Part shown: piece by piece, positions 2-9,950 of the stretch
How the letters are laid out: every line of letters begins with the position of its first letter
Position numbering within the stretch: the stretch's first letter is position 1
DNA from: a virus
Taxonomy: Duplodnaviria; Heunggongvirae; Uroviricota; Caudoviricetes
DNA: 11,838 bases
Virus record (IMG/VR): IMGVR_UViG_3300000059_000035
Coordinates: 1-11,838 of that record
Strand: one strand, 5' to 3'
Made by a program: the position numbers and the translations under genes
The notes under the pieces: model-generated
Told to the model about the DNA's origin: nothing
Databases searched by the model: none
The model's input: the letters and a program-made list of their open reading frames with translations, nothing else

Positions 2-3000
2 CTGAAAGTCGTCGATGGCATTCTGGTATCTCCGGACGATTACGAAGGTAAGGACGGGGTATTTACCGGCTATCAGCTACGAACCGTAAACGGCAAAAAC
101 GGGAATGAGTTCAAGAAGGCCAACAATAAAGACGGCTTCCTGAACCAGTTAGAAAACTACCTGAACGGTGTTAAACCGCGTGGGCAGAACGCTAACGAGT
201 ACCTGGATAAAATTGCTCAACTGGAAGTTAGTTTTAACGACTGGTTACGCACCCACCCGCAGGCGGATCAGATAGCCCGCGAGTATAACGACGCATTCAA
301 TGGCTTCATTCCGTTCACGCACTCTAACGCACCGCTTGGCCTGGAAGGGATTAGTGGAAAGCGCATTCCTCTGACTTATCAGAATGAAGAAGTTCGGCGC
401 TTGTCAGAAGATGGGCGCGGCATCATGGGATTTGGTACCGGGCTGGGTAAAACCACGACCGCGCTTGCGCTTGAGGCGTATAACTTCGAAACAGGTCGCA
501 CTAAACGCACGTGTATTGTTGTTCCGAAGGCGGTTTATCAGAACTGGTATCACGAGGCACAGAGCTTCTACAGTGCTGATGCCTTCGCAAATATGATGTT
601 TATCGGTCTGGATGAAGTTCGTGATGAAGACGGCAATATTCTGACCGCGCCGGTGCTTGATGAAAATGGCGAACCCCGCCTCGACAGTAACGGGCAGCCT
701 CTTACCAGAAATGTTGTGAAAGAGTCCGCCAGCGCCGTTATCGTTCAGCGCATGAACATGATCCCGTCGTCAAATTGGCGAACGGTCATCATGACAAAAG
801 AACAATTCGCGTCTATCCCGCTACGAGAAAAAACCATCGAGGAGAACTCACAGCAAGCTGTCTTTAATGCTGTGGAAATGGGGCGTCTTGACCTGGCGTC
901 TGGTAAACACCGTGATGCGCAGAAGAAGAACAAGATTAAGGATCAGGCCGCGGATACCGGTACAACGAAGAAGCAGAATATCCCGTACTTTGAGGATATG
1001 AACTTCGATAGCGTGATTGCCGACGAGGGGCATAACTACCGCAACTCCTTTAATGCCGGGCGTGAAGCGGGACAACTGGCATATTTGCCTAACCCGGCAG
1101 TATCCAAGATGGCCCGCGACATGGCTGTAAAAGCTGCGTACATGATGAAACGCAACAACGGGCGTGGTGTAGTCATGCTGACGGCAACACCGCTGGTGAA
1201 CAGTCCGATTGATGCCTTCAACATGCTGTCTACTGTCATTCCGCAGGAAGAGTGGATGCGCATGGGCATCATTACGCCTGATGATTTCGTTCGTGTGTTT
1301 GGTAAAACAGCCACAGTTCAGGTCCAGAAAATTTCCGGGGAAGTGGAAGAGAAGCAGGGGCTGGTTGGCTTCCAGAACCTTGATGGCCTGCGTGGTATTT
1401 TCCATCGCTGGACTACTCTGAAGACTGCTGCGGACGTCGGGGCGACGGTTAAAATCCCTGATATTGTCGAGAATACCTTGCAGATCCCGATGACAGGGGA
1501 GCAGGAGGCTGCTTATGAAGAGCTTCGTAAGCGTGCACAGGAGTTAAGTAGTAAAGATGCGCTGACGGTTGATGAAAACGGGCATATCACAAACGAAAAA
1601 CCGGATGATTTCATCTTCTCCATCATCCGCGACATGGATAAGGTTGCTATAGATCCGGATCTGTATGCCAGTGCGATTACATTCCAGTTCCCCGTTGAGC
1701 TTGCAGACAAGGTAAAAGCTATTGCTGATGCCCTGCCAAAAGTAGCTGGCGGTAAAGTGGCAGATGATGCAGACGAGGCCGAAGAAGACGGCGCTGGTGG
1801 GCTGGTTAGTACGCGCACCAGTAAGGTAGTGAAGACCACCTTTAGTGAACATCCGGCGCATGTTGAAATACGTGCCAGCATTGAACTGGAAGCTGAAATA
1901 CTGAAGGCCATTGCTGCCGCCGGGATTGATCTGCAGCAGGTATCACACCCCATCCCGCCGAAGTATGCCGCGCTGATCGAAAACCTTCGTGAAGGTCTGA
2001 AGAACGGTAAACAAATTGTCTTCATTGATGAAAAAGCCCAGCACCAGAAGCTGCGCCGTATTATCGCCAGTGCACTGCAAATGCCGGAGCAGGAGATAGG
2101 CATTATCAATGCGACGACCGTTAGCCAGGCTGGCGGCATCAAGCTGAAGAAGGTGAATAAGCCGACTGAACCTACTCCGAATAAAAACGGTGAATACAAA
2201 GAAGGGGCATGGGAAACCTACTACAGCAAACTTGCCCAATATGAGGATTATCTCTCAGCTAAAAATGATGCTGGCCTTGAGGGTATGGAAGGCATTGCCG
2301 CCGACTATAACGAAGGGCGCACGCGCATCATTATCTGTAACAAGAAGGCTGAAGTAGGTATTAACCTGCATATCGGGACAACCGATATCCACCACCTGAC
2401 ACTACCCTGGACACCAGCCAGTATCGACCAACGAAATGGGCGCGGTGCGCGCGTAGGTTCACCGCAAGAGAAGGTCAATGTTCACTACTATTGTGGCAAA
2501 GGCACATTCGACGACTTCCGTCTGGATACGCTGAAACGTAAGAAAGACTGGATCAAGATGGTGATGACCTCCGATATGTCAGAGATCGCCAATGGTGATG
2601 CGGATGATGCTGATGAACGCGCCATTATGCTGGCGGCAAACCCGGAAGAACGCCGCGCAATCATGGCTCGCCAGGCGCAAGAGCGTGAAGAACGTCTGAA
2701 ACTGAAAGCACAGCGCGAGGCCAACAATGCTCTCGATATCTACCTAAAAGCGGCAAACGCCGCCGGAAAAGATATCGGCATGATGGAGACAGAACTGAAA
2801 AGCGCGATGGAGCAGATAGAGTATTACCAGCGCAATCTTGACGACCTGATAAAAGCGGGCACGAACAGGAATGGGCAAAAATACGCGCTTGAGCAGTTGA
2901 GTAGCTACAGAAAACGTGCGCGGGTGCTGCGGTTTGCGATCACCAGGGCAAAAGACGCGGATACCATAATGAAACGCTCTCGTGGTGATGTGGAGCGCGC

Positions 3001-4735
3001 TATTAAGTCTGGTGTGCTGGATATCAGTATCGATGTTATTCAGAACCCACAGGAATATATGCGCACTGACAAGAATATCCTGTTGCATAAAGGTAGTTAT
3101 TACCGTGCAGTCATTGATGATCGCGAAACAACAGCGATTGTCCGGGTGGAAAAAATTGACGGTGAAAAAGCACAGTACATCTGCCGTATCGCCTGGCTGG
3201 ATAGAGCAAGTCGTTACGCTCGATCACCGGGGTCAATCGTTACATTGCCGTTTGACTCTGTGATTGAAGCGGTAACTTTTGAAGAGGGGGTAGCTGAATC
3301 GCGCGCAACGGCTGCGCGTGGTGTTCAGTGCCACCAGCTATCAACAATACTTACTCGCGATCAGTTCTATGATGCTATTCGCAATGGGGTAATGAATGTT
3401 ATTGCTGGTAAACCTGGTAATGCATGGGGCGGTGGGTCAGCTATTAAATACTGGGCATATCGCACAGATGATGGTCAGATCGCGCTGTCATCGGCCTATG
3501 ATGGCGTGATAGGCCAAAAAATCGGGCGAGCATCGGATATAGCACCTGAACGATGGATATATCCAGATGGCAACGATGAGGCGCTGAAGCGTGAAGTGGC
3601 AAAAATACAAGCCAGTGATAACCCGCTGAATATCGTGGACGGAGAGGGATTCCTCCAGGCATTGTATGGGTATGATTACATCCAGGGAATGCAGGCATGG
3701 GGCGCACAGGCAACGATGGATGATGTTGCCAAGGAGTTCGAAAACTGGATGGCTGGGCGTGGTCTGTCAGGTCGTTCGCTTAATAAAGTCACTTCTGAAG
3801 ATATTCTTAGCCTGTTCCGCAAACCGTCCGGAGAAGGTCTGGAATCATTCTGGAGGACCGTGCTGGCATACCGTTTATTCCAGGGCAGGATGAAAGCCTT
3901 TAGCAATATCGATGATATTGAACGGATGTTTAATCAGGTCAAGATAGCGAAAATTAAGACGAAGATCGAAAAAACACGTTCTGCGCTGGTGGCCTGGCGC
4001 GATGCATTGTTTGAGCAATATAAATCACTCAGTGATGCAGATGGATGGGCGGCACTGGAACAGTTGGCGAATAATGGGGTAGATGGAGCGAAACTCGCCA
4101 TTGTCCAGGCTGATAACCCCCTGGAATCACCGGCAGCACAGTGGATTAAGGTGGGGGCTGTCATCAATGCATTTGATGAAAAACACATTAGTAAGGACGA
4201 TTTTGCTGATGCTGTTTCTGTTAATCGCCTGGTAGAAATGGCTACCCGCCGCGCCCGTGAGTTGAAAGACGGTGACTATGTGAATGAGTTGCCGGATGCG
4301 CTCAAATCAGCAACGTGGCAAGACTATGTATCGCTGAAAAACGGCGGGGCCACCGAATCAGAGATCGCGGAAAGGCTTGAACAGGCTGAAAGCAAAAGAG
4401 AAGAGCAGGCGGCAGTGGCAGAAGCCAGAGCTGATGAAGCGGCGAATGATGACTATATCATTGTGGTTAATGATAAGCCGATTCGCGCTAAGGCGCGTGT
4501 TCGCGGGCGCTGGTGGAGCGTCAGCGAGGACGTTGGCGCGGTTTATCTCATTGCCGACCAACCAGGTTCCTCGACAATACGGAACGCCAAAGACGCGATT
4601 AAGAAGATTGGCGGGCGTTTCTGGAATTTTGAAGTGAATCCGGTCGCGGATGTGGACTTTGACCGTCCGGCGTGGATGGTATCTACGCGTTACTCGGTAG
4701 ATGAACTGCGTAAAATAATCGCCGATGCGGCTTAA
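2..4735 (+). CDS. Giant multidomain protein, 5'-truncated by the window edge (1578 codons visible); SF2 DEGH-box helicase core followed by a ~750-aa C-terminal region of unknown function
   Basis: Frame 2 is open from position 2 through the TTG at 401 where the ORF track begins (I walked every codon; no stop), ending at TAA 4733-4735. Walker A GFGTGLGKTT at 428-460, DEGH box at 1022-1033, LTATP (motif III-like) at 1178-1192, motif VI QRNGRGARVG at 2429-2458. Acidic tract DDADEAEEDG and a charged coiled-coil-like segment (ERRAIMARQAQEREERLKLK). No convincing start or RBS in-window, so the N-terminus lies upstream. Confidence 0.85.
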   Translation: MKVVDGILVSPDDYEGKDGVFTGYQLRTVNGKNGNEFKKANNKDGFLNQLENYLNGVKPRGQNANEYLDKIAQLEVSFNDWLRTHPQADQIAREYNDAFNGFIPFTHSNAPLGLEGISGKRIPLTYQNEEVRRLSEDGRGIMGFGTGLGKTTTALALEAYNFETGRTKRTCIVVPKAVYQNWYHEAQSFYSADAFANMMFIGLDEVRDEDGNILTAPVLDENGEPRLDSNGQPLTRNVVKESASAVIVQRMNMIPSSNWRTVIMTKEQFASIPLREKTIEENSQQAVFNAVEMGRLDLASGKHRDAQKKNKIKDQAADTGTTKKQNIPYFEDMNFDSVIADEGHNYRNSFNAGREAGQLAYLPNPAVSKMARDMAVKAAYMMKRNNGRGVVMLTATPLVNSPIDAFNMLSTVIPQEEWMRMGIITPDDFVRVFGKTATVQVQKISGEVEEKQGLVGFQNLDGLRGIFHRWTTLKTAADVGATVKIPDIVENTLQIPMTGEQEAAYEELRKRAQELSSKDALTVDENGHITNEKPDDFIFSIIRDMDKVAIDPDLYASAITFQFPVELADKVKAIADALPKVAGGKVADDADEAEEDGAGGLVSTRTSKVVKTTFSEHPAHVEIRASIELEAEILKAIAAAGIDLQQVSHPIPPKYAALIENLREGLKNGKQIVFIDEKAQHQKLRRIIASALQMPEQEIGIINATTVSQAGGIKLKKVNKPTEPTPNKNGEYKEGAWETYYSKLAQYEDYLSAKNDAGLEGMEGIAADYNEGRTRIIICNKKAEVGINLHIGTTDIHHLTLPWTPASIDQRNGRGARVGSPQEKVNVHYYCGKGTFDDFRLDTLKRKKDWIKMVMTSDMSEIANGDADDADERAIMLAANPEERRAIMARQAQEREERLKLKAQREANNALDIYLKAANAAGKDIGMMETELKSAMEQIEYYQRNLDDLIKAGTNRNGQKYALEQLSSYRKRARVLRFAITRAKDADTIMKRSRGDVERAIKSGVLDISIDVIQNPQEYMRTDKNILLHKGSYYRAVIDDRETTAIVRVEKIDGEKAQYICRIAWLDRASRYARSPGSIVTLPFDSVIEAVTFEEGVAESRATAARGVQCHQLSTILTRDQFYDAIRNGVMNVIAGKPGNAWGGGSAIKYWAYRTDDGQIALSSAYDGVIGQKIGRASDIAPERWIYPDGNDEALKREVAKIQASDNPLNIVDGEGFLQALYGYDYIQGMQAWGAQATMDDVAKEFENWMAGRGLSGRSLNKVTSEDILSLFRKPSGEGLESFWRTVLAYRLFQGRMKAFSNIDDIERMFNQVKIAKIKTKIEKTRSALVAWRDALFEQYKSLSDADGWAALEQLANNGVDGAKLAIVQADNPLESPAAQWIKVGAVINAFDEKHISKDDFADAVSVNRLVEMATRRARELKDGDYVNELPDALKSATWQDYVSLKNGGATESEIAERLEQAESKREEQAAVAEARADEAANDDYIIVVNDKPIRAKARVRGRWWSVSEDVGAVYLIADQPGSSTIRNAKDAIKKIGGRFWNFEVNPVADVDFDRPAWMVSTRYSVDELRKIIADAA

Positions 4736-4746
4736 CAGATAAGGAG

Positions 4747-4764
4747 CGGCCCCAGCCGGGGCCG
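4747..4764 (+). other. GC-rich hairpin (7-bp stem CGGCCCC/GGGGCCG, 4-nt loop) between an AAGGAG Shine-Dalgarno (4741-4746) and the ATG at 4772
   Basis: Perfect inverted repeat read directly; no U-tract follows, so it is not a canonical intrinsic terminator. Confidence 0.6.
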
Positions 4765-4771
4765 GATTTGA

Positions 4772-5206
4772 ATGACGACATTAATTGACACTGTAAAACC
4801 GACGGAATCCTACCTTGAGGATATTTTGCCGCAGGCGCTCAATGGCAGGAGTGAAGAGGCGTTTCTGGATGCATATCTGGATGGTATGGTGGAAAGGCTG
4901 AAACGAGATCCACAGCTTTATCACCTTTATGGCCCGTGGTGGCCTGCGCTTAAAACGTTATTGCTGGAGCGCGGCGACATATCATTTGGACAAGTTGTAG
5001 ATAGTGATGTGGCAGAGATCTACAAAATGAGTCGCCCGGCGCTTACGGTTTTAGCCGGGCATCTGTATTCAAGCGATCGCCTGGAAAATGACGCGGTATA
5101 CAATCCCGTTCATGCTCTGGAAGTCGCGCCTTATGCTGATGATACAGAGCCATATGTGTACACAAGTTACGACGAGTCGATAGAGAAATATCGAATCATG
5201 GGGTAG
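4772..5206 (+). CDS. Hypothetical acidic protein, 144 aa
   Basis: ATG ORF 36 nt downstream of the giant gene stop; about 25 D/E versus 12 K/R by my count; stop TAG 5204-5206 lies 2 nt before the next ATG. Confidence 0.6.
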   Translation: MTTLIDTVKPTESYLEDILPQALNGRSEEAFLDAYLDGMVERLKRDPQLYHLYGPWWPALKTLLLERGDISFGQVVDSDVAEIYKMSRPALTVLAGHLYSSDRLENDAVYNPVHALEVAPYADDTEPYVYTSYDESIEKYRIMG

Positions 5207-5208
5207 CT

Positions 5209-5469
5209 ATGCGAAAGAATCGTAGGTTTACGATCGACGACTTAAAAGCGTACTCACAAGGGAAGGGATACGCCCTTGAATACCACCGTTATAAGCGGGT
5301 ATTTACCCTGCGGCATATAGAAAACCCTTCGAAATGGGGATGGATTTATTTTCCGCACACTGACGATAAGCTGGTGGGCCTTGTTGATGATTTATCCTAT
5401 GAAGGATGGATGATCGCTATCGACAAGGCGGTTACAGAAATTAACGAACCGGATAAAATAAACCATTAA
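5209..5469 (+). CDS. Hypothetical protein, 86 aa
   Basis: ATG at 5209 is 2 nt after the upstream stop (TAGCTATG), suggesting translational coupling; same strand and context. No recognisable motif. Confidence 0.5.
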   Translation: MRKNRRFTIDDLKAYSQGKGYALEYHRYKRVFTLRHIENPSKWGWIYFPHTDDKLVGLVDDLSYEGWMIAIDKAVTEINEPDKINH

Positions 5470-5473
5470 AAAT

Positions 5474-5513
5474 AACAAGTTGGGTAAATGACATACAATT
5501 TACCCGGCTTGTT
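5474..5513 (+). other. Long hairpin just after the 86-aa gene (16-bp stem with two G-U pairs, 8-nt loop); possible terminator or RNA stabiliser lacking a U-tract
   Basis: AACAAGTTGGGTAAAT (5474-5489) pairs with ATTTACCCGGCTTGTT (5498-5513); core GGGTAAAT/ATTTACCC is a perfect 8-bp inverted repeat. Confidence 0.5.
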
Positions 5514-5592
5514 GACCCGCATCACCATTTACTCTAAAAACAAGTCCGACCTGTTGCATCCGCCTATCTCTTTAGTAGTATTTCCCCCGGTT

Positions 5593-5620
5593 TTGATAAA
5601 ACTAACGCTCTTGTTATTAT
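5593..5620 (+). promoter_or_regulatory. Candidate sigma70-type promoter (-35 TTGATA, 16-bp spacer, -10 TATTAT)
   Basis: TTGATA at 5593-5598 and TATTAT at 5615-5620, about 35 nt upstream of the VRR-NUC ORF start. Confidence 0.4.
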
Positions 5621-5644
5621 CGTGATCATGATTTCAGGAAGTTT

Positions 5645-5654
5645 GTGTTAGAAA
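5645..5654 (+). promoter_or_regulatory. Copy of the recurring GTGTTAGAAA motif, ending 1 nt before the TTG start at 5656
   Basis: Exact 10-mer shared with 7945-7954 and 8095-8104. Confidence 0.4.
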
Positions 5655-5655
5655 T

Positions 5656-6102
5656 TTGATTCGAAGACGCAGGCATCATAGTGCGTATTCTGAAATATCC
5701 CCGCACGCTGCTGCACTAAGAGAGTTAGAAAGAAATCCTGACTTACTAAAAAGGAATTACGAACATTACGAACAGGTTCGCGTTCTGGATTGGCTGTATC
5801 GCAACATGCGATACGTGTATGAGCACACACACTCAACACCGAACGGCGGCCTGAGAGGCAAAAGGACAGCCATTAAGATGGTGGCAGAAGGTCAGAAGAA
5901 GGGCTATCCGGACCTTTCTATTGACCTTGCTCGTGGTGGGTATCACGGAATGCGCATTGAGATGAAGCACGGGAGAAACCGTCTGACTCCCGAACAGCTC
6001 GTCTGGATGACCCGCCTCACGGAAGCAGGCTATTACTGCTTTGAGGCGCGCAGTGCCGATGAAGCCATAAAAGCTATCACGGAATATGTAAATCTTGATT
6101 AA
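5656..6102 (+). CDS. VRR-NUC domain nuclease (PD-(D/E)xK superfamily), 148 aa if the TTG start is used
   Basis: Conserved VRR-NUC-like segments read in the translation: HSTPNGG, GYPDLSI, RIEMKHG (E-x-K), TPEQLVWMTRLTEAGYYCF. Stop TAA 6100-6102. Start is uncertain: the only in-frame start codon before the conserved N-terminal region is TTG at 5656, with weak SD. Confidence 0.7.
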   Translation: MIRRRRHHSAYSEISPHAAALRELERNPDLLKRNYEHYEQVRVLDWLYRNMRYVYEHTHSTPNGGLRGKRTAIKMVAEGQKKGYPDLSIDLARGGYHGMRIEMKHGRNRLTPEQLVWMTRLTEAGYYCFEARSADEAIKAITEYVNLD

Positions 6103-6116
6103 ACGGAGAAATCGTT

Positions 6117-6317
6117 TTGCGTTTACTTAACGTGGCTGAACTTATCCCTGCCGGTGCTAACGTTGTTGCTCGTCGCTGCTCATGGCCTCATTCTTTCTGT
6201 ATAGAGCTTAAAAAGATGGATGATGGGGCATTAGAAGCCCGAAACATAGTTACCGGCGACAAGGTATGCATTACCCCGGAAAGCGCGAAAGCCAATGATT
6301 GGGAGTTTGTTCATTGA
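6117..6317 (+). CDS. Hypothetical small protein, 66 aa (TTG start)
   Basis: GGAG at 6104-6107 lies 9 nt upstream of TTG 6117; stop TGA 6315-6317. No motif recognised; short, so uncertain. Confidence 0.35.
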   Translation: MRLLNVAELIPAGANVVARRCSWPHSFCIELKKMDDGALEARNIVTGDKVCITPESAKANDWEFVH

Positions 6318-6625
6318 GCAGAAAACACCACGTAAATCTGACGTTTGCTGATGACGCCGGAAGAACCAGAAGCATAACCATGAAAGTTGCTTCCAGGAAA
6401 GTAACCGCTCCACTTATACGAGAGGCCGTAAGTGAACTTGAGATGAGTGAGAATGCAGCTCTGTTATCGGTAAGCTGGCTGGGGAAAATGACGGATCAGG
6501 AATACTCGGATGGTATACCCCACGGTGAGCGGCAGATAGTAAAGCGCGCGCTTAGAATTTCAGAGGTAGTTGTCGTACTGATAGCTTTGATTTATATGGC
6601 ATACATGCTACTTCAACACGTCTAA
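6314..6625 (+). CDS. Hypothetical small protein with a C-terminal hydrophobic (probable transmembrane) segment; start uncertain (TTG 6314 or ATG 6380)
   Basis: TTG 6314-6316 overlaps the upstream TGA (TTGA) with GGGAG at 6301-6305; alternative ATG at 6380. C-terminus ISEVVVVLIALIYMAYMLLQHV is strongly hydrophobic. Stop TAA 6623-6625. Confidence 0.4.
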   Translation: MSRKHHVNLTFADDAGRTRSITMKVASRKVTAPLIREAVSELEMSENAALLSVSWLGKMTDQEYSDGIPHGERQIVKRALRISEVVVVLIALIYMAYMLLQHV

Positions 6626-6633
6626 ACGGTCAT

Positions 6634-6660
6634 AAACCCGCCAGTTGGCGGGTTTTTTGT
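6634..6660 (+). terminator. Rho-independent terminator
   Basis: Stem CCCGCC (6637-6642) / GGCGGG (6647-6652), loop AGTT, followed by TTTTTT (6653-6658). Confidence 0.8.
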
Positions 6661-6676
6661 TGCCTGAGTCTTTTTA

Positions 6677-6713
6677 TTGAAATTGCATACTAATAAAATA
6701 TGTTAGAAAACTA
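6677..6713 (+). promoter_or_regulatory. Candidate promoter for the 402-aa gene (-35 TTGAAA, 16-bp spacer, -10 TATGTT) overlapping a TGTTAGAAAACTA motif copy
   Basis: TTGAAA 6677-6682, TATGTT 6699-6704; motif GTTAGAAAACTA at 6702-6713; the ATG at 6735 has an AGGGAA-type SD. Confidence 0.5.
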
Positions 6714-6734
6714 ATTTCAAGAAAGGGAACAAAC

Positions 6735-7943
6735 ATGAGTCAGCAAGTAGAATCATCAAGCCTGGAGATCATCTCAACCGCAATTGAAACGCTGCGGACA
6801 CAAATCGCGCTTATACAGAAACGAAATCCGGGCGATGACCTGTCAAAGCGACTGCATGAGAGCGTCATTGCCACTACAGATAACCTGGTGGCGGAAATCA
6901 ACCAGCTCCTTGATGATGGGGCAGTTGATTACAATAAGCTGGTGGATCAGTTTGAGGAATATCAGCAAGCCGTTAATGATGGCTTGATCCGTTTTTCTCA
7001 AGTCACTGGTGTATCAGCGACAGTTGAAAGCCTGGGGGATGCTGTTAATCAATTTGCCGCGAATATGCGTAATGAGATCGGCAATCTGGAGGCGCGTCTT
7101 GAGCAGGCAAATACACTGCGCAAATCTGCTGAAGTCGATTTGAGTCGTTACAAAAAAGACTATCCGCCAAGCCTGACAAAACGACTGGATGTTGCGGAGA
7201 AAGATAACCGCACGCTGAAAAGAGAGCGTCGGGAACTAAAAGAGCGTTTAACCAAGCTAAATCAGCAATGCGTTGAGTATCAAGGCGAACTCGTCACGCT
7301 GCGTAAAAAGTTAGCAGCGGCGCAGAGCATTATTGAAACATTGAAACGAGAGTGCTCAGAGCTTGGTCATGATCTGAATCGCGCCTGTGGCATGGGGCAA
7401 AGGCCAGAGACATTCCCGCTAATGTATGACGGAAGAGAAGCTATTGCCTATATCCATGAGTTTCCGCATGGTCTGGTCGCGGAGACTGGGCAACGTGGCG
7501 AAGCGTTGCTGACGGCAAATTACCATCAGCAAATCAGAACCAGCCGCCTGCTGACGATGGATGTGATCCCGTCAGTATGGGGAACGCCGCTTTACTACCG
7601 AATTCCTGGCTTCGAAACTGACTGGAATACCGACATAGACGAATGTCTGGCAGATAAAATTATGGCGTACCTTGAAACGGATTTTCCACGCTTGCATCGC
7701 CGGATTATGGACTCTAAGGATGCACCGATCGACGAATTGAAAATGCGTCCAGAGACGTTGGAGGCAATCAAGCAGACTGAGTTTGATACAGTGTTCAGTG
7801 TGGCCTGCATTCCAAGCAGCTTTCATGAAAGCATTCCGTTCATGCAGGGCGATCGACGTCAGGAAATAATTGATGCTTGCCGGGTATGGGCGAACGAGTG
7901 GGATAAGAAGAACGGTGGAGTTGAAAATCTTTACGGGAAATAA
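6735..7943 (+). CDS. Hypothetical protein, 402 aa: N-terminal ~220 aa predicted coiled coil, C-terminal ~180 aa globular domain of unknown function
   Basis: ATG with SD; long ORF; heptad-like charged segments (for example RLDVAEKDNRTLKRERRELKERLTKLNQQCVEYQGELVTLRKKLAAAQ); flanked by a terminator upstream and a palindrome downstream. No catalytic motif recognised. Confidence 0.75.
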   Translation: MSQQVESSSLEIISTAIETLRTQIALIQKRNPGDDLSKRLHESVIATTDNLVAEINQLLDDGAVDYNKLVDQFEEYQQAVNDGLIRFSQVTGVSATVESLGDAVNQFAANMRNEIGNLEARLEQANTLRKSAEVDLSRYKKDYPPSLTKRLDVAEKDNRTLKRERRELKERLTKLNQQCVEYQGELVTLRKKLAAAQSIIETLKRECSELGHDLNRACGMGQRPETFPLMYDGREAIAYIHEFPHGLVAETGQRGEALLTANYHQQIRTSRLLTMDVIPSVWGTPLYYRIPGFETDWNTDIDECLADKIMAYLETDFPRLHRRIMDSKDAPIDELKMRPETLEAIKQTEFDTVFSVACIPSSFHESIPFMQGDRRQEIIDACRVWANEWDKKNGGVENLYGK

Positions 7944-7944
7944 T

Positions 7945-7976
7945 GTGTTAGAAAACTAAAATTATCTTTCTAACAT
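7945..7976 (+). promoter_or_regulatory. Palindromic operator-like site: GTGTTAGAAA - 12 bp - TTTCTAACAT
   Basis: Arms 7945-7954 and 7967-7976 are reverse complements at 9 of 10 positions; it sits 2 nt after the stop codon of the 402-aa gene. Confidence 0.5.
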
Positions 7977-8011
7977 GTTGATTATGGGATTAACTTAACA
8001 TAGAATTTTTC

Positions 8012-8081
8012 GTGCTGGTGGGGAGCTTCCCATGTCGCTTGCGGGTTTGATAGTCACTTCATTGTCTTCCCCCACCAGCAC
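8012..8081. repeat. Long-stem inverted repeat (about 13-bp stem with one bulge, 43-nt interior), tRNA-sized (70 nt)
   Basis: GTGCTGGTGGGGA (8012-8024) pairs with TCCCCCACCAGCAC (8068-8081). Confidence 0.45.
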
Positions 8082-8094
8082 CAAACAAACTTAA

Positions 8095-8104
8095 GTGTTA
8101 GAAA
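8095..8104 (+). promoter_or_regulatory. Copy of the GTGTTAGAAA motif
   Basis: Exact 10-mer; AT-rich flanks. Confidence 0.4.
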
Positions 8105-8246
8105 GTAAATTTTAAGGTAAGGGAAAGCTCCGGCACCGTGCAAATACATGCCCGGCAGGTTTAGTGCGTAAAGTGGTTTCAGCGAGAGCATTTTACGGAG
8201 TAAACGACAGTGACTTGAGCCACGGAAGGTCTTTTTAAGGTGTTCA

Positions 8247-8274
8247 TTGATGATGATCTGGCAGTGAGTATGTT
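8247..8274 (+). promoter_or_regulatory. Candidate promoter (-35 TTGATG, 16-bp spacer, -10 TATGTT) upstream of the small ORF at 8338
   Basis: Same -10 hexamer (TATGTT) and spacer length as the 6677-6704 candidate. Confidence 0.35.
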
Positions 8275-8337
8275 AAGTGGGCCAGGCTGCATCGGGTCAT
8301 CATCAGTGCACATCCTCAACGTTAAGGAGGCGCAGAG

Positions 8338-8529
8338 TTGGGTTTTCCTCTTATTTTGCTGACTCTGAGTCTCCTTAACGTTGCGGTAATGCACCTATGC
8401 GGATGTGGCCTTGCATTGTGTTTTGAAAGAATGGGGGTAAGGCCGGGGATATCCCCAGGGGGAGGCACCCCCGCTGCAACGAACAGCCATAGACGGCAGT
8501 CGAGTGATGAAAACGTGAAAAGACTTTAA
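8338..8529 (+). CDS. Small protein (63 aa) with a hydrophobic N-terminal half; candidate membrane peptide
   Basis: Strong SD AAGGAGG at 8324-8330, 7 nt before TTG 8338; N-terminus GFPLILLTLSLLNVAVMHLCGCGLALCF is hydrophobic, C-terminus polar. Non-ATG start and short length keep confidence low. Confidence 0.35.
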   Translation: MGFPLILLTLSLLNVAVMHLCGCGLALCFERMGVRPGISPGGGTPAATNSHRRQSSDENVKRL

Positions 8530-8606
8530 ACCTCGTTACGGCTGGCGTGGCAAACGCGACAACCGGGATAGGACGGTGACGGGCGGAGAGAGAGCCGCTT
8601 CAAGAT

Positions 8607-8673
8607 AAAAGCCGACTATGGATTCCTTTCTGCGGGCCTTTGAAAGTGAATCTTGCTCAGGCAGTCGGCTTTT
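8607..8673. repeat. Long-stem inverted repeat (perfect 11-bp stem, 45-nt interior), tRNA-sized (67 nt)
   Basis: AAAAGCCGACT (8607-8617) pairs with AGTCGGCTTTT (8663-8673). Confidence 0.45.
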
Positions 8674-8803
8674 ATGTTGATACGTAGCGATAACCGCGAC
8701 AGGCGCGGCGGTAAGTATGGCGGGGTTATTCCTTCCCCGTTGAGGACACCGAGTTGCCAGGTTGACCATACGCCTAAGTGGCAATACCGCGAGTGGGATA
8801 TTT

Positions 8804-8828
8804 GCCCACCTTCGGGTGGGTGTTTTTT
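8804..8828 (+). terminator. Rho-independent terminator
   Basis: Stem CCCACC (8805-8810) / GGTGGG (8815-8820), loop TTCG, followed by TGTTTTTT. Confidence 0.8.
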
Positions 8829-9012
8829 CAGTGTTTTCGTCATGGTTAGCGACTTTGCGGCGGTTTAGAACCCGACCATTAAAGTAAATGCAAACGATGA
8901 TCTGATGATGGTAGCGGCCTAAGAAGCCTGACGCCACGGGGTATGAGTCGTCCCCCGTCAAAAAATCGACCGCAGAGTGTCCCCGTCTGTGTATTAGGGA
9001 ACGGGGAGGCAT

Positions 9013-9089
9013 AACAGGCAAGGGCGCTGGTGTGATTAACCAGATGAATGAGAAGGGGCAGGTCTTTCTGGTCAGCGCCCTTACCTGTT
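9013..9089. repeat. Long-stem inverted repeat (17-bp stem with 1 mismatch, 43-nt interior), tRNA-sized (77 nt)
   Basis: AACAGGCAAGGGCGCTG (9013-9029) pairs with CAGCGCCCTTACCTGTT (9073-9089). Confidence 0.45.
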
Positions 9090-9288
9090 GCGTCCTTCCC
9101 GCGTAACAGCCATTGGTTAATGGCTTTCTGGATAATGTCTTGTAACGGGTATATCCCGTCATGCTGAAGGCGCTAATCACGCTGGAAGCCAGGGTTATGC
9201 ATCCCCTGTTACCGAATTGCAGCCAGGGCGCGGTGCGCCGAAAAGCATACGGAGGTGGAAGCCCTCGCCGGAGACGTACCCGGCAAGT

Positions 9289-9365
9289 GATGGTGTAGCT
9301 CAGTAGGATAGAGCAGCAGCCTTCTAAGCTGTCGGTCGGTGGTTCGAATCCACCCACCATCGCCA
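9289..9365 (+). tRNA. tRNA-Arg (anticodon TCT)
   Basis: Cloverleaf read by hand: acceptor GATGGTG/CACCATC, D-arm GCTC-AGTAGGATA-GAGC, anticodon stem GCAGC/GCTGT with loop CTTCTAA, T-arm GGTGG-TTCGAAT-CCACC, discriminator G, encoded CCA. D-arm and anticodon loop resemble E. coli argU as I recall it. Confidence 0.9.
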
Positions 9366-9370
9366 ATTTA

Positions 9371-9457
9371 GGGGAGTTAGTCCGTAGGGGTAGCGGGGTA
9401 GACTGTAAATCTACTGTCATTGCGACTCGGATGGTTCGACTCCATCACTCCCCACCA
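9371..9457 (+). tRNA. tRNA-Tyr (anticodon GTA), type II with long variable arm
   Basis: Acceptor GGGGAGT/ACTCCCC, anticodon stem GTAGA/TCTAC with loop CTGTAAA, long variable arm TGTCATTGCGACTCG (similar to E. coli tyrT as I recall it), T-arm GATGG-TTCGACT-CCATC, encoded CCA. D-arm pairing is imperfect as drawn by hand. Confidence 0.8.
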
Positions 9458-9461
9458 AATT

Positions 9462-9537
9462 GCCGGTTTAGCTCAGTTGGTAGAGCAGTCGCTTTGTAAG
9501 CGAATGGCCAGCGGTTCAAGTCCGTTAACCGGCACCA
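9462..9537 (+). tRNA. tRNA-Thr (anticodon TGT)
   Basis: Acceptor GCCGGTT/AACCGGC, D-arm GCTC-AGTTGGTA-GAGC, anticodon stem GTCGC/GCGAA with loop TTTGTAA, T-arm AGCGG-TTCAAGT-CCGTT, discriminator A, encoded CCA. Confidence 0.9.
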
Positions 9538-9545
9538 ACACAACA

Positions 9546-9619
9546 GGTAAGGGTATTTTGCGACGTCGGAGATCGCCGTGCTTGGCAGAGGGTTCGAATC
9601 CCTACGAAGTACCCTTACC
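9546..9619 (+). other. tRNA-like remnant or tRNA-sized hairpin (74 nt) directly after the tRNA array; not a canonical tRNA
   Basis: Perfect 10-bp terminal stem GGTAAGGGTA (9546-9555) / TACCCTTACC (9610-9619) enclosing a T-arm-like hairpin AGGG-TTCGAAT-CCCT (9589-9603). Nine extra nt lie between the T-stem and the 3' acceptor strand, and no D-arm or anticodon arm can be drawn. Confidence 0.35.
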
Positions 9620-9767
9620 GTTGTGGTGAATGCGCAGGCTGATGCGCGAAAGACATTGCAGCTATTGCGGAAAAGAGCTGTTCGGCGGGGCAATTAAACG
9701 CCCGTGAGAGTCTGAAATAACCGCAAGCCGGAGATCAGCACCGGTCACCACAACAGCCACTGCTTTG

Positions 9768-9813
9768 GCGGTACCAGTTTGTACACTTGCTTCCGGCTGG
9801 TACCGCTCTTTTT
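9768..9813 (+). terminator. Rho-independent terminator (10-bp stem, 19-nt loop, U-tract)
   Basis: GCGGTACCAG (9768-9777) / CTGGTACCGC (9797-9806) followed by TCTTTTT (9807-9813). Confidence 0.7.
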
Positions 9814-9814
9814 A

Positions 9815-9901
9815 CAAAACAGAGAAGAGCATCACCGGACGACGGGCTCATAACCCAATCCATCCGGGCGGCNGNCACCGCAGGTGTTCTTCTCTGTTTT
9901 G
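9815..9901. repeat. Long-stem inverted repeat (16-bp stem with 1 mismatch, ~55-nt interior) in the leader upstream of the yfdP-like gene
   Basis: CAAAACAGAGAAGAGC (9815-9830) pairs with GTTCTTCTCTGTTTTG (9886-9901); interior contains two N bases (9873, 9875). Confidence 0.4.
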
Positions 9902-9950
9902 TGGAGAAACCAACCGACCTTGCAGGGTCGATATGATNAGGAGCAGCAAA

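Follow-up and report, generated by a model that had tools for sequence, protein, structure and literature searches.

A conserved-stem, variable-core hairpin next to tRNA-Thr in a P1/D6-type phage-plasmid: a probable intercistronic RNase III substrate with a tRNA-like top

We have studied an element that follows a tRNA-Thr gene in the IMG/VR virus record IMGVR_UViG_3300000059_000035 (Caudoviricetes), a stretch of 11,838 nucleotides (nt). Throughout, the window means this whole stretch, and the coordinates of the element are window positions. The element (9537-9628, + strand) is a full-length member, here called the A-type allele, of a family of hairpins with a conserved stem and a variable core. 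We consider it, with a probability of about 0.65, to be an intercistronic processing hairpin, most likely a substrate of RNase III, in a long and mostly non-coding early transcript of a P1/D6-type phage-plasmid. A reading made from the letters alone, hereafter the sequence-only reading, had suggested a pseudo-tRNA, a processing signal or the remnant of an attachment (att) site. The processing signal is the option favoured by our results, as the hairpins form a covarying, sense-strand family in which the member in the Qin prophage of Escherichia coli K-12 holds the RNase III-dependent 5' end of the 190-nt form of the small RNA DicF. The top of the hairpin is probably tRNA-derived filler, taken up by recombination where the hairpin can vary freely, and less probably a functional tRNA mimic. 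Intercistronic hairpins of the RNase III type are a known kind of phage element, and this is a member that had not been annotated before.

Results

Sequence, fold and placing of the element

The tRNA-Thr(tgt) gene occupies 9462-9537 on the + strand (ARAGORN; 69 bits with the Rfam tRNA model), and a single nucleotide separates its CCA end from the basal helix of the hairpin. In this helix CACAAC (9539-9544, 5' strand) pairs with GUUGUG (9620-9625). It is followed by A9545, which is a conserved bulge, and by a lower stem of 15 base pairs (bp), in which 9546-9560 pairs with 9605-9619 and G.U pairs occur at 9556/9609 and 9559/9606. The 3' strand of the lower stem and the basal helix together span 9605-9625, with a putative RNase III cut somewhere in 9613-9619. 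The sequence-only reading had proposed a perfect 10-bp terminal stem and a T-arm-like hairpin AGGG-TTCGAAT-CCCT, and both are present, the former as GGTAAGGGTA at 9546-9555 opposite its complement TACCCTTACC at 9610-9619, the latter at 9589-9603. The full helix is longer than 10 bp, comprising 15 bp and the 6-bp base across the bulged A9545. The adjacency to tRNA-Thr was also correct, although the gap between the CCA end and the terminal stem is 8 nt (9538-9545) and not nine. With 6 + 15 bp and one bulge, the element has the nearly unbroken double helix, some two turns and 20 bp or more in length, by which we define an RNase III hairpin. Its minimum free energy (MFE) was -37.8 kcal/mol for 9540-9625 (z = -4.1), a stability that none of 200 shuffled sequences reached, and its MFE ranged from -37.8 to -41.7 kcal/mol.

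With the covariance model of the family, R1 (see below), the element scored 61.9 bits (E 3.7e-16) over the full length of the model (1-89), compared to 33.4 bits on the minus strand. It displays each of the defining features of the family, i.e. the basal helix, the bulged A on the 5' side, GG/CC, a 1x1 mismatch or pair, and then at least 10 bp of AAG.../...CUU. At stem position 3, where the family usually has U.U, it has a U-A pair, as do 13 of the 97 members. The element is on the same strand as tRNA-Thr, 1 nt behind it, which fits the sense placement of the family beside a tRNA or a terminator. Its homologue in P1 follows trnT (locus L001, 3048-3139), its sole annotation there being that of the 3' part of plp, an antisense coding sequence (CDS).

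That the element cannot fold as a canonical tRNA, as the sequence-only reading stated, is borne out by the tRNA searches. ARAGORN called no tRNA on it, and the Rfam tRNA model (RF00005) gave no match at E <= 10 on the element, nor elsewhere in 8950-9750 beyond the three true tRNAs. The same reading found no D-arm that could be drawn, and this part did not stand, since a D-arm-like hairpin is possible at 9560-9576. The tmRNA and YrlA models had no match on the element, and the mascRNA (14.2 bits, E 8.8), microRNA precursor and YrlA matches obtained with Rfam were at chance level. For the window and five further loci, Rfam returned nothing for the hairpins, or for two neighbouring RNA modules described below (element 2 and a block of about 170 nt), either at the gathering thresholds or at E <= 10. 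A literature search by sequence string found no phage paper. We also rejected a repeat of the MITE (miniature inverted-repeat transposable element) or REP (repetitive extragenic palindrome) type, as the copies do not share an interior (41 unrelated interiors in 97-110 distinct copies). AgvB/AsxR anti-sRNAs and Pas small RNAs (sRNAs) were rejected as well; these occupy the same moron slot but are terminator-bearing sRNAs and not hairpins of this sort.

A family of hairpins with a conserved stem and a hypervariable core

Family members were collected by scanning viral contigs, and one genome per species, for the pattern ACAACAGGTAAG-N45-75-CCGTTGTG. The viral contigs gave matches at 120 or more loci. 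In the genome scan, for which about 34 chance matches are expected, true matches were found only in Enterobacterales, and matches in other genomes were discounted as lambda DNA contamination (75 nt, on tiny low-coverage contigs) or as chance matches lacking the stem. Identical 75-nt matches occurred in unrelated bacteria, among them Psychrobacter, Algoriphagus, Bradyrhizobium, Enterococcus and Kitasatospora, on contigs of very small size and low coverage (loci L133, L138, L140, L142, L145, L148, L152, L164, L166, L168, L171, L175, L179, L180 and L182); judged by their length, which equals that of the lambda member, these look like contamination with phage lambda.

The collection holds 97-110 distinct members from temperate enterobacterial phages (P1-like plasmids and lambdoid phages), which fall into 41 clusters of unrelated interior, 27-57 nt long. 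The core is hypervariable, and the stem (CACAAC-A-GGUAAGrGyAUU... / ...rUrCyCUUwCC-GUUGUG) is nearly invariant. The consensus frame is gCACAAC-A-GG-U-AAGAGCAUUG ... CAGUGCUCUU-U-CC-GUUGUGGUG. Its conserved non-canonical features are the bulged A, a U.U mismatch (83 of 97 members) and a U.G wobble (75 of 97). It should be underlined that the basal helix was fixed by the search pattern. The first basal pair was C-G in 37 rows and U-G in 4 rows of the alignment A1, which contains one sequence per cluster and from which R1 was built. The bulged A is found also in members obtained independently of the pattern, such as that at 3550-3633 of P1 (L001); Qin has a G there.

The lambda member (44787-44862; 66.1 bits with R1) was among the top scores and is located right behind tR', the terminator of 6S RNA, within the late leader antiterminated by Q. 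P1 has four members inside 1 kb (28.8-59.6 bits), and the copy in the PL leader of mEp460 scored 27.1 bits. At other P1-like loci, different hairpins occur at the same position or in tandem, their ends being alike and their interiors quite different. The window itself contains two further members. A diverged one (AACAGGCAAGGGCGCUG.../...CAGCGCCCUUACCUGUU, 9011-9092, MFE -40.7 kcal/mol) lies upstream of the tRNA cluster; it scored 28.7 bits on the + and 31.3 bits on the minus strand, so that R1 does not orient it, and its + orientation is taken from the operon context. These scores support the common origin with the 9013-9089 hairpin that had been suggested from a shared 12-mer, and the 12-mer is indeed there, as AACAGGCAAGGG at 9013-9024, as AACAGGTAAGGG at 9542-9553 and as an exact reverse complement at 9078-9089. 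The other, a weak and diverged inverted repeat (ACAAAACAGAGAAGAGCAUCACC.../...GGUGUUCUUCUCUGUUUUGU, 9813-9904, + strand), scored 19.9 bits (E 0.001 over 83 kb) and falls in the lambdoid part of the window. Among the prophages of E. coli K-12, only the dicB operon of Qin has a member (NC_000913 1649171-1649259, between ydfC and dicF; 30.7 bits, E 3.8e-7), and none was found in the late region of DLP12 or in CPS-53. In Rfam and in the literature that could be searched we found no description of the family, and it is unannotated in GenBank/RefSeq records.

Covariation, strand and genomic contexts

In A1, 98.8% of the stem cells were paired. Covariation was seen in all seven of the stem pairs that the pattern leaves free, with 26 cells changed on both sides, a result not reached in any of 500 shuffles nor approached by any slid register of the alignment. 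At the free stem positions G.U combinations outnumbered A.C combinations by 134 to 6, an excess which points to RNA transcribed from the sense strand. R1 likewise scored canonical members about 28 bits higher on the + strand than on the minus strand, and the hairpins were always co-oriented with the neighbouring tRNAs and terminators. Among 122 distinct contexts, a tRNA on the same strand ended within 15 nt upstream in 25, a tRNA started within 15 nt downstream in 4, and a T tract lay just upstream in 31. These observations point to the family hairpins acting as sense-strand RNA. With regard to coding, the plp CDS of P1 is annotated antisense across the hairpin; in the window plp is gone while the hairpin is intact, which indicates that the hairpin is independent of coding.

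The T tracts just upstream in 31 of the 122 contexts, that of lambda tR' included, and the placing of the hairpins right behind terminators in antiterminated operons might suit a Nus-factor (boxA-type) or other antitermination RNA site. So might the 3' arm, which in most members contains UGCUCUUU, the core of rrn boxA, and the U.U mismatch of those 83 members falls inside ...GCUCUUUCC. Nevertheless, the boxA-like bases are paired in the stem, the present allele reads ACCCUUAC, two mismatches from boxA, and the resemblance is only 6-8 nt long. We therefore regard an antitermination site as very improbable.

The RNase III-dependent 5' end in Qin and the proposed processing

DicF is cut out of the polycistronic dicBF RNA, RNase E being responsible for a form of 53 nt and RNase III for the 5' end of one of 190 nt (10.1101/2023.04.14.536235). 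The 190-nt form was absent in an rnc mutant and its 5' end was mapped by primer extension (10.1101/2023.04.14.536235, a preprint by Ragunathan et al. 2023 confirming Faubladier, Cam and Bouche 1990). When 190 nt are counted back from the 3' end of dicF (1649434 plus the U tract), the 5' end comes to lie at 19246-19251 of the Qin locus L184, inside the 3' arm GUGCGCUUCCGGUUGUGG of the family hairpin and 11-12 bp above its base, an arithmetic that is good to about 6 nt and that applies to this homologue only. In the model alignment this end corresponds to about model position 75, i.e. to window position 9614. In vivo RNase III sites have been reported for the late RNA of lambda, according to the citation of Daniels et al. 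1988 (Daniels, Subbarao, Blattner and Lozeron, Virology 167:568) in PMC7547250. Those sites may coincide with the lambda hairpin at 44787-44862. When the lambda leader was read by eye, without a systematic fold or scan, the family hairpin was the only helix of about 20 bp that was noticed.

The transcript that holds the element and the leader of the P1 ban operon are homologous, and in such an early operon the hairpin would separate tRNA-Thr from the downstream RNA. By analogy with Qin, RNase III would cut the lower stem about 11-12 bp above the base, near 9553/9554 and in 9613-9619 (with a 2-nt stagger). The corresponding cuts are predicted at about 69519 and 69579-69585 in P1 (hairpin 69503-69590), at about 44805 and 44851 in lambda, and at about 1649245-1649250 in K-12. 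After the cuts, tRNA-Thr would come away carrying a trailer of 16 nt for exonucleases to trim, the downstream RNA would be freed, and a top of about 60 nt would be released. The T-arm, and perhaps the D-like hairpin too, is most probably sequence captured from a neighbouring tRNA gene and lies where RNase III does not read the hairpin. As a side effect, the conserved arms and the adjacent element 2 give otherwise unrelated phages a shared homology at which modules are exchanged, the window itself being an example.

Several points weigh against this interpretation. Cleavage has been demonstrated for the Qin homologue only, and for the present copy and the P1-type copies we infer it. The Qin member is moreover a diverged relative (30.7 bits), and its cut site derives from the size of a 190-nt gel band, give or take about 6 nt, and not from published coordinates. 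RNase III needs little sequence specificity, and the strict conservation of the stem (20 nt per arm, with the bulged A, the U.U and the U.G) is therefore not explained by RNase III alone; another reader of the stem, for instance a protein, is possible. The region is also dispensable for plaque formation by P1 (PMC10695390), which implies that any function is accessory.

The tRNA-like core

The T-arm-like hairpin (AGGG-UUCGAAU-CCCU in RNA, 9589-9603, + strand), read from the sequence of the variable core, agrees with our definition of a T-arm with a UUCRANY loop. The D-arm-like hairpin, GCGA-CGUCGGAGA-UCGC (in DNA GCGA-CGTCGGAGA-TCGC; 9560-9576, + strand), was read in the same manner; it is weakly supported and absent from the MFE fold of the P1 variant. 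T-arm-like hairpins (at least 4 bp and a UUCRANY loop) were found in three of the 41 unrelated cores, compared to a mean of 0.02 and never more than one in shuffled sequences, so that the resemblance is not due to chance. The three are the A-type core, the C/D types of other P1-like plasmids, in which the T-arm comes right after the 5' strand, and the core of L046, from a tRNA-rich phage contig; the remaining 38 are devoid of any tRNA feature. All of these T-arm alleles occur in phages with tRNA arrays, and the T-loop 11-mer of the element (GGTTCGAATCC) is identical in tRNA-Arg (9341-9351), 250 nt upstream. Together, these two observations suggest that the top is captured tRNA-gene sequence.

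To place the core among host sequences, 9556-9612 was searched with blastn (word size 11, E <= 10) against 5,426 complete E. coli genomes. It matched at 475 places in 464 genomes, 466 of them on plasmids. All matches covered at least 80% of the query, all were unannotated, and there was no partial match to a tRNA gene of the host at E <= 10; in 473 E. coli records the core was at least 95% identical. The core matches only full-length copies of itself, which speaks against an att-site remnant, i.e. the 3' part of a host tRNA gene, and Pfam showed no integrase among the ten largest open reading frames of the window.

The pseudo-tRNA option fared partly better, inasmuch as the T-arm is real and non-random in the family. 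No tRNA model accepts the element, however, and the stem that frames it is that of the family and not an acceptor stem. A dead tRNA gene that has lost its anticodon arm, gained an extra stem and has no present function would account for the 11-mer shared with tRNA-Arg of the same cluster, for the position inside a tRNA cluster and for a core fold that lacks thermodynamic support. It would not account for a stem that covaries and that is common to lambda, mEp460 and about 100 other hairpins without tRNA content, nor for an element at least 95% identical on hundreds of plasmids. We find this explanation unlikely.

Somewhat less unlikely, though still doubtful, is a functional tRNA mimic. Here the stem would be a generic holder for the excision of hypervariable small RNAs (at least 41 unrelated cores), and the tRNA-like alleles would be released as RNAs of about 60 nt, with a T-arm and a D-like arm on a 7-bp stem. 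These would engage host or defence factors that read the tRNA elbow, such as modification enzymes, RNase P or the CCA-adding enzyme, or act as a decoy for a defence nuclease that targets tRNAs. Such a role would agree with the excess of T-arms over the 0.02 expected, with the near-identity of the core in the 473 records, with the modular tRNA sets of these phages and with the predicted cut, after which a stem of 7 bp and a 3'-CC overhang would remain. In addition, the unrelated allele L046 (10637-10733) repeats the layout of a D-like and a T-like arm with a different sequence, its D-like hairpin being GCAU-AUCUGGGAA-AUGC. On the other hand, predicted tops folded alone were no more stable than shuffled sequences (z -0.3 to -1.6; -0.64 for this allele), the MFE fold of the P1 variant breaks the T-arm, and the sole common polymorphism (9579 T/A) disrupts either of the middle helices that can be drawn. 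The lack of a match to tRNA, tmRNA or YrlA, the chance-level score of mascRNA and the 38 cores devoid of tRNA features also argue against a mimic. If the stem were such a holder, the diversity of the cores would reflect diversifying selection and not neutral drift. We prefer a processing hairpin whose top is tRNA-derived filler.

Origin of the window and neighbouring RNA modules

Positions 2-9755 of the window derive from a P1/D6-type phage-plasmid and encode, among others, a VRR-NUC protein and the C-terminal portion of an SNF2 helicase that is DarB-like. These genes are followed by about 1.7 kb without a convincing gene, the counterpart of the leader of the P1 ban operon, which in P1 has the order dicF-like region, trnA-trnT, plp/upl (on the other strand), tciABC, trnI and ban. 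From 9619/9620 on, the window is 97-100% identical to lambdoid phages (such as mEp460 and Stx2 phages) and carries the early-left module yfdP-yfdQ-yfdR. Homology to P1 ends at 9637 and lambdoid homology starts at 9619; homology to related plasmids ends at 9558/9559, 9635-9647 or 9755. The junction between the P1 and lambdoid parts, which the hairpin and element 2 form, was absent from 5,426 complete E. coli genomes, 72,556 plasmids (PLSDB) and 50,697 phage records (INPHARED). It must accordingly be a rare recombinant or else a chimera that arose in assembly through a shared element of 137 bp. The hairpin is unaffected by this question, being found at the same place on hundreds of plasmids.

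The positions of these breakpoints bear on whether the hairpin could be a DNA recombination site, either a folded single strand like the attC sites of integrons or a linker for the exchange of cassettes. Plasmid homology breaks at hairpins (9558/9559, 9635-9647 and 9755), the switch from P1-like to lambdoid sequence falls inside 9619-9755, two hairpins bracket the plp-upl module of P1, and the architecture is attC-like. The consensus of attC core sites is GTTRRRY/RYYYAAC, to which GTTGTGG and ACACAAC each have at least one mismatch. Moreover, a Pfam search of the ten largest open reading frames (ORFs) of the window found no integrase or other recombinase, and no recombinase is known in P1 for such sites. 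The excess of G.U pairs and the strand asymmetry fit RNA, and the Qin homologue is cut by RNase III as RNA. We judge a recombination site to be improbable, and exchange by way of linkers is best seen as a consequence rather than a selected function.

Element 2 (9620-9754, + strand) is a second RNA module with a conserved frame and a variable core, which follows many family hairpins and is common to some P1-like plasmids (L007) and to lambdoid phages. The exchange from which the window arose may plausibly have used it as a substrate. It is found also at 3004-3138 of mEp460 (L004) and, after dicF, from about 19452 of L184. The frame reads GUUGUGGUGAAUGCGCAGGCUGAUGCGC - [10-140 variable nt] - AGCCGGAGAUCAGCACCGGyCACCACAAC. 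Covariation is seen in two small hairpins of the module; their loops, GCUGA and UCAGC, are complementary, and L115 has GUCGA/UCGAC instead, a double compensatory change that, at the level of sequence, suggests a kissing loop or pseudoknot. At its 5' end element 2 shares its GUUGUG with the closing strand of the hairpin before it, so that the two pairings compete. A small ORF at 9631-9708 (MRRLMRERHCSYCGKELFGGAIKRP) was rejected as a gene, as it is the hairpin stems and loops that are conserved and not the reading frame.

A conserved non-coding block of about 170 nt (UUUGGUUGUAACACGGCGUAUGGCACAUGCGUCGUUAGCGGUCUGG...CAGGUAGCCGGAAUGUGCAAG) is common to the P1 ban operon (L001 4556-4760, after trnI and before ban) and to lambdoid PL leaders (L004 at about 2750-2900 in mEp460, after a PL-like promoter; also L187 1265-1420). 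In the lambdoid leaders it occupies the position expected of nut/put; an identity with the put RNA of HK022 was rejected, as blastn against HK022 gave no similarity.

The tRNA cluster of the window consists, besides tRNA-Thr, of tRNA-Arg(tct) at 9289-9365 and tRNA-Tyr(gta) at 9371-9457 (ARAGORN/Rfam). The former and tRNA-Asn(gtt) of P1 (L001 2895-2970) and of Ro157 (L002 2395-2469) agree fully in acceptor stem and discriminator and almost fully in the T arm, and differ only in the D loop and the anticodon arm; by sequence comparison, a single scaffold has had its anticodon arm swapped. The tRNA sets of P1-like contigs are modular, of the form [Asn or Arg]-[Tyr]-Thr-hairpin-[Ser]-...-Met/Ile. 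In related P1-like plasmids there is an extra long-arm tRNA (L005 12271-12355 and L007 12505-12589; tRNA-Sec-like in Rfam, 44-47 bits), and at the corresponding position of other P1-like contigs ARAGORN calls tRNA-Ser(tga). In P1, plp and upl occupy 3019-3588 on the minus strand of L001, plp running antisense through trnT and the hairpins at 3048-3139 and 3274-3372; plp of JL22 is shorter. The plp of P1 is probably non-coding, at least in its 3' part.

Ahead of the non-coding stretch there is a promoter-like site (7978-8006). At 8803-8822 (about 8737-8838), where P1 has its annotated 'dicF-like region', the window has a terminator-like hairpin, UGCCCACCUUCGGGUGGGUG-UUUUUU; the Rfam DicF model remained below threshold throughout the window. 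In the same non-coding stretch of P1-like plasmids, sub-threshold matches to an STnc100-like sRNA (33-41 bits) occur at L001 3627-3746, L002 3349-3468, L005 12468-12605 and L007 12681-12896. The window contains no P1 C1 operator, and control by C1 as in P1 should therefore not be assumed for the D6-like element.

Discussion

What looked like a broken tRNA appears to be a processing hairpin with a tRNA-like top, which is a warning for the annotation of tRNAs and pseudogenes in phage tRNA clusters. The lambda tR' hairpin, the RNase III site before dicF and the four hairpins of the P1 ban leader appear to be one homologous family. It is absent from Rfam, yet the A-type core alone occurs in 464 of the 5,426 complete E. 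coli genomes. The family gives a testable map of cut sites in long antiterminated phage transcripts and would account for spurious ORFs in some cases, among them the 3' part of P1 plp. It also illustrates how short conserved RNA modules may form the seams along which P1-like and lambdoid genomes exchange cassettes.

Comparison with known systems

YrlA RNA (RF02553) resembles the element in having a long terminal stem that closes a tRNA-like domain with a T-arm, and the C/D alleles, with their T-arm right after the 5' strand, presumably share its permuted order. In contrast to YrlA, the window has no rsr gene, and the YrlA model matched neither the element nor the C/D alleles, its only regional match (16.8 bits, E 1.6) lying over tRNA-Tyr/Thr. 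With the attC sites of integrons the element has in common an imperfect hairpin, AAC...GTT ends, an extrahelical base, a variable centre and a location at cassette boundaries. It differs from them in its ends, which deviate from the core consensus, in that no IntI was found, and in that the evidence points to a role as RNA. Compared to a tRNA (RF00005), it has a canonical T-arm (4-bp stem, UUCGAAU loop), possibly a D-like hairpin with GG, and a terminal helix; this helix, however, is 21 bp long, the T-stem and the 3' strand lie 6 nt apart, and the element has neither an anticodon arm nor a discriminator-CCA end.

Among textbook RNase III sites are the R0.3-R1.3 hairpins of T7 early RNA and the rrn stems flanking 16S and 23S rRNA (with tRNAs). 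Like the family hairpins, they are repeated, span about two helical turns, punctuate a polycistronic transcript and release stable RNAs. There is no kinship in sequence, though, and the T7 sites have an internal loop, a single cut and no hypervariable top. The hairpin of the lambda late transcript differs from the element in having a core without a tRNA-like motif. The Qin dicBF site has diverged in sequence, its core is unrelated and its neighbour is an sRNA instead of a tRNA; the cut is known from Qin and would be expected by homology in the element. Nonetheless, it has the same architecture of a 6-bp base (CAUAAC/GUUGUG), a 1-nt bulge on the 5' side, 2 bp, a 1x1 mismatch and 10 bp (AAGCGCAUGG/CCGUGCGCUU in Qin), and it too belongs to an immunity-controlled early operon rich in non-coding RNA, where it parts the upstream segment from a small RNA.

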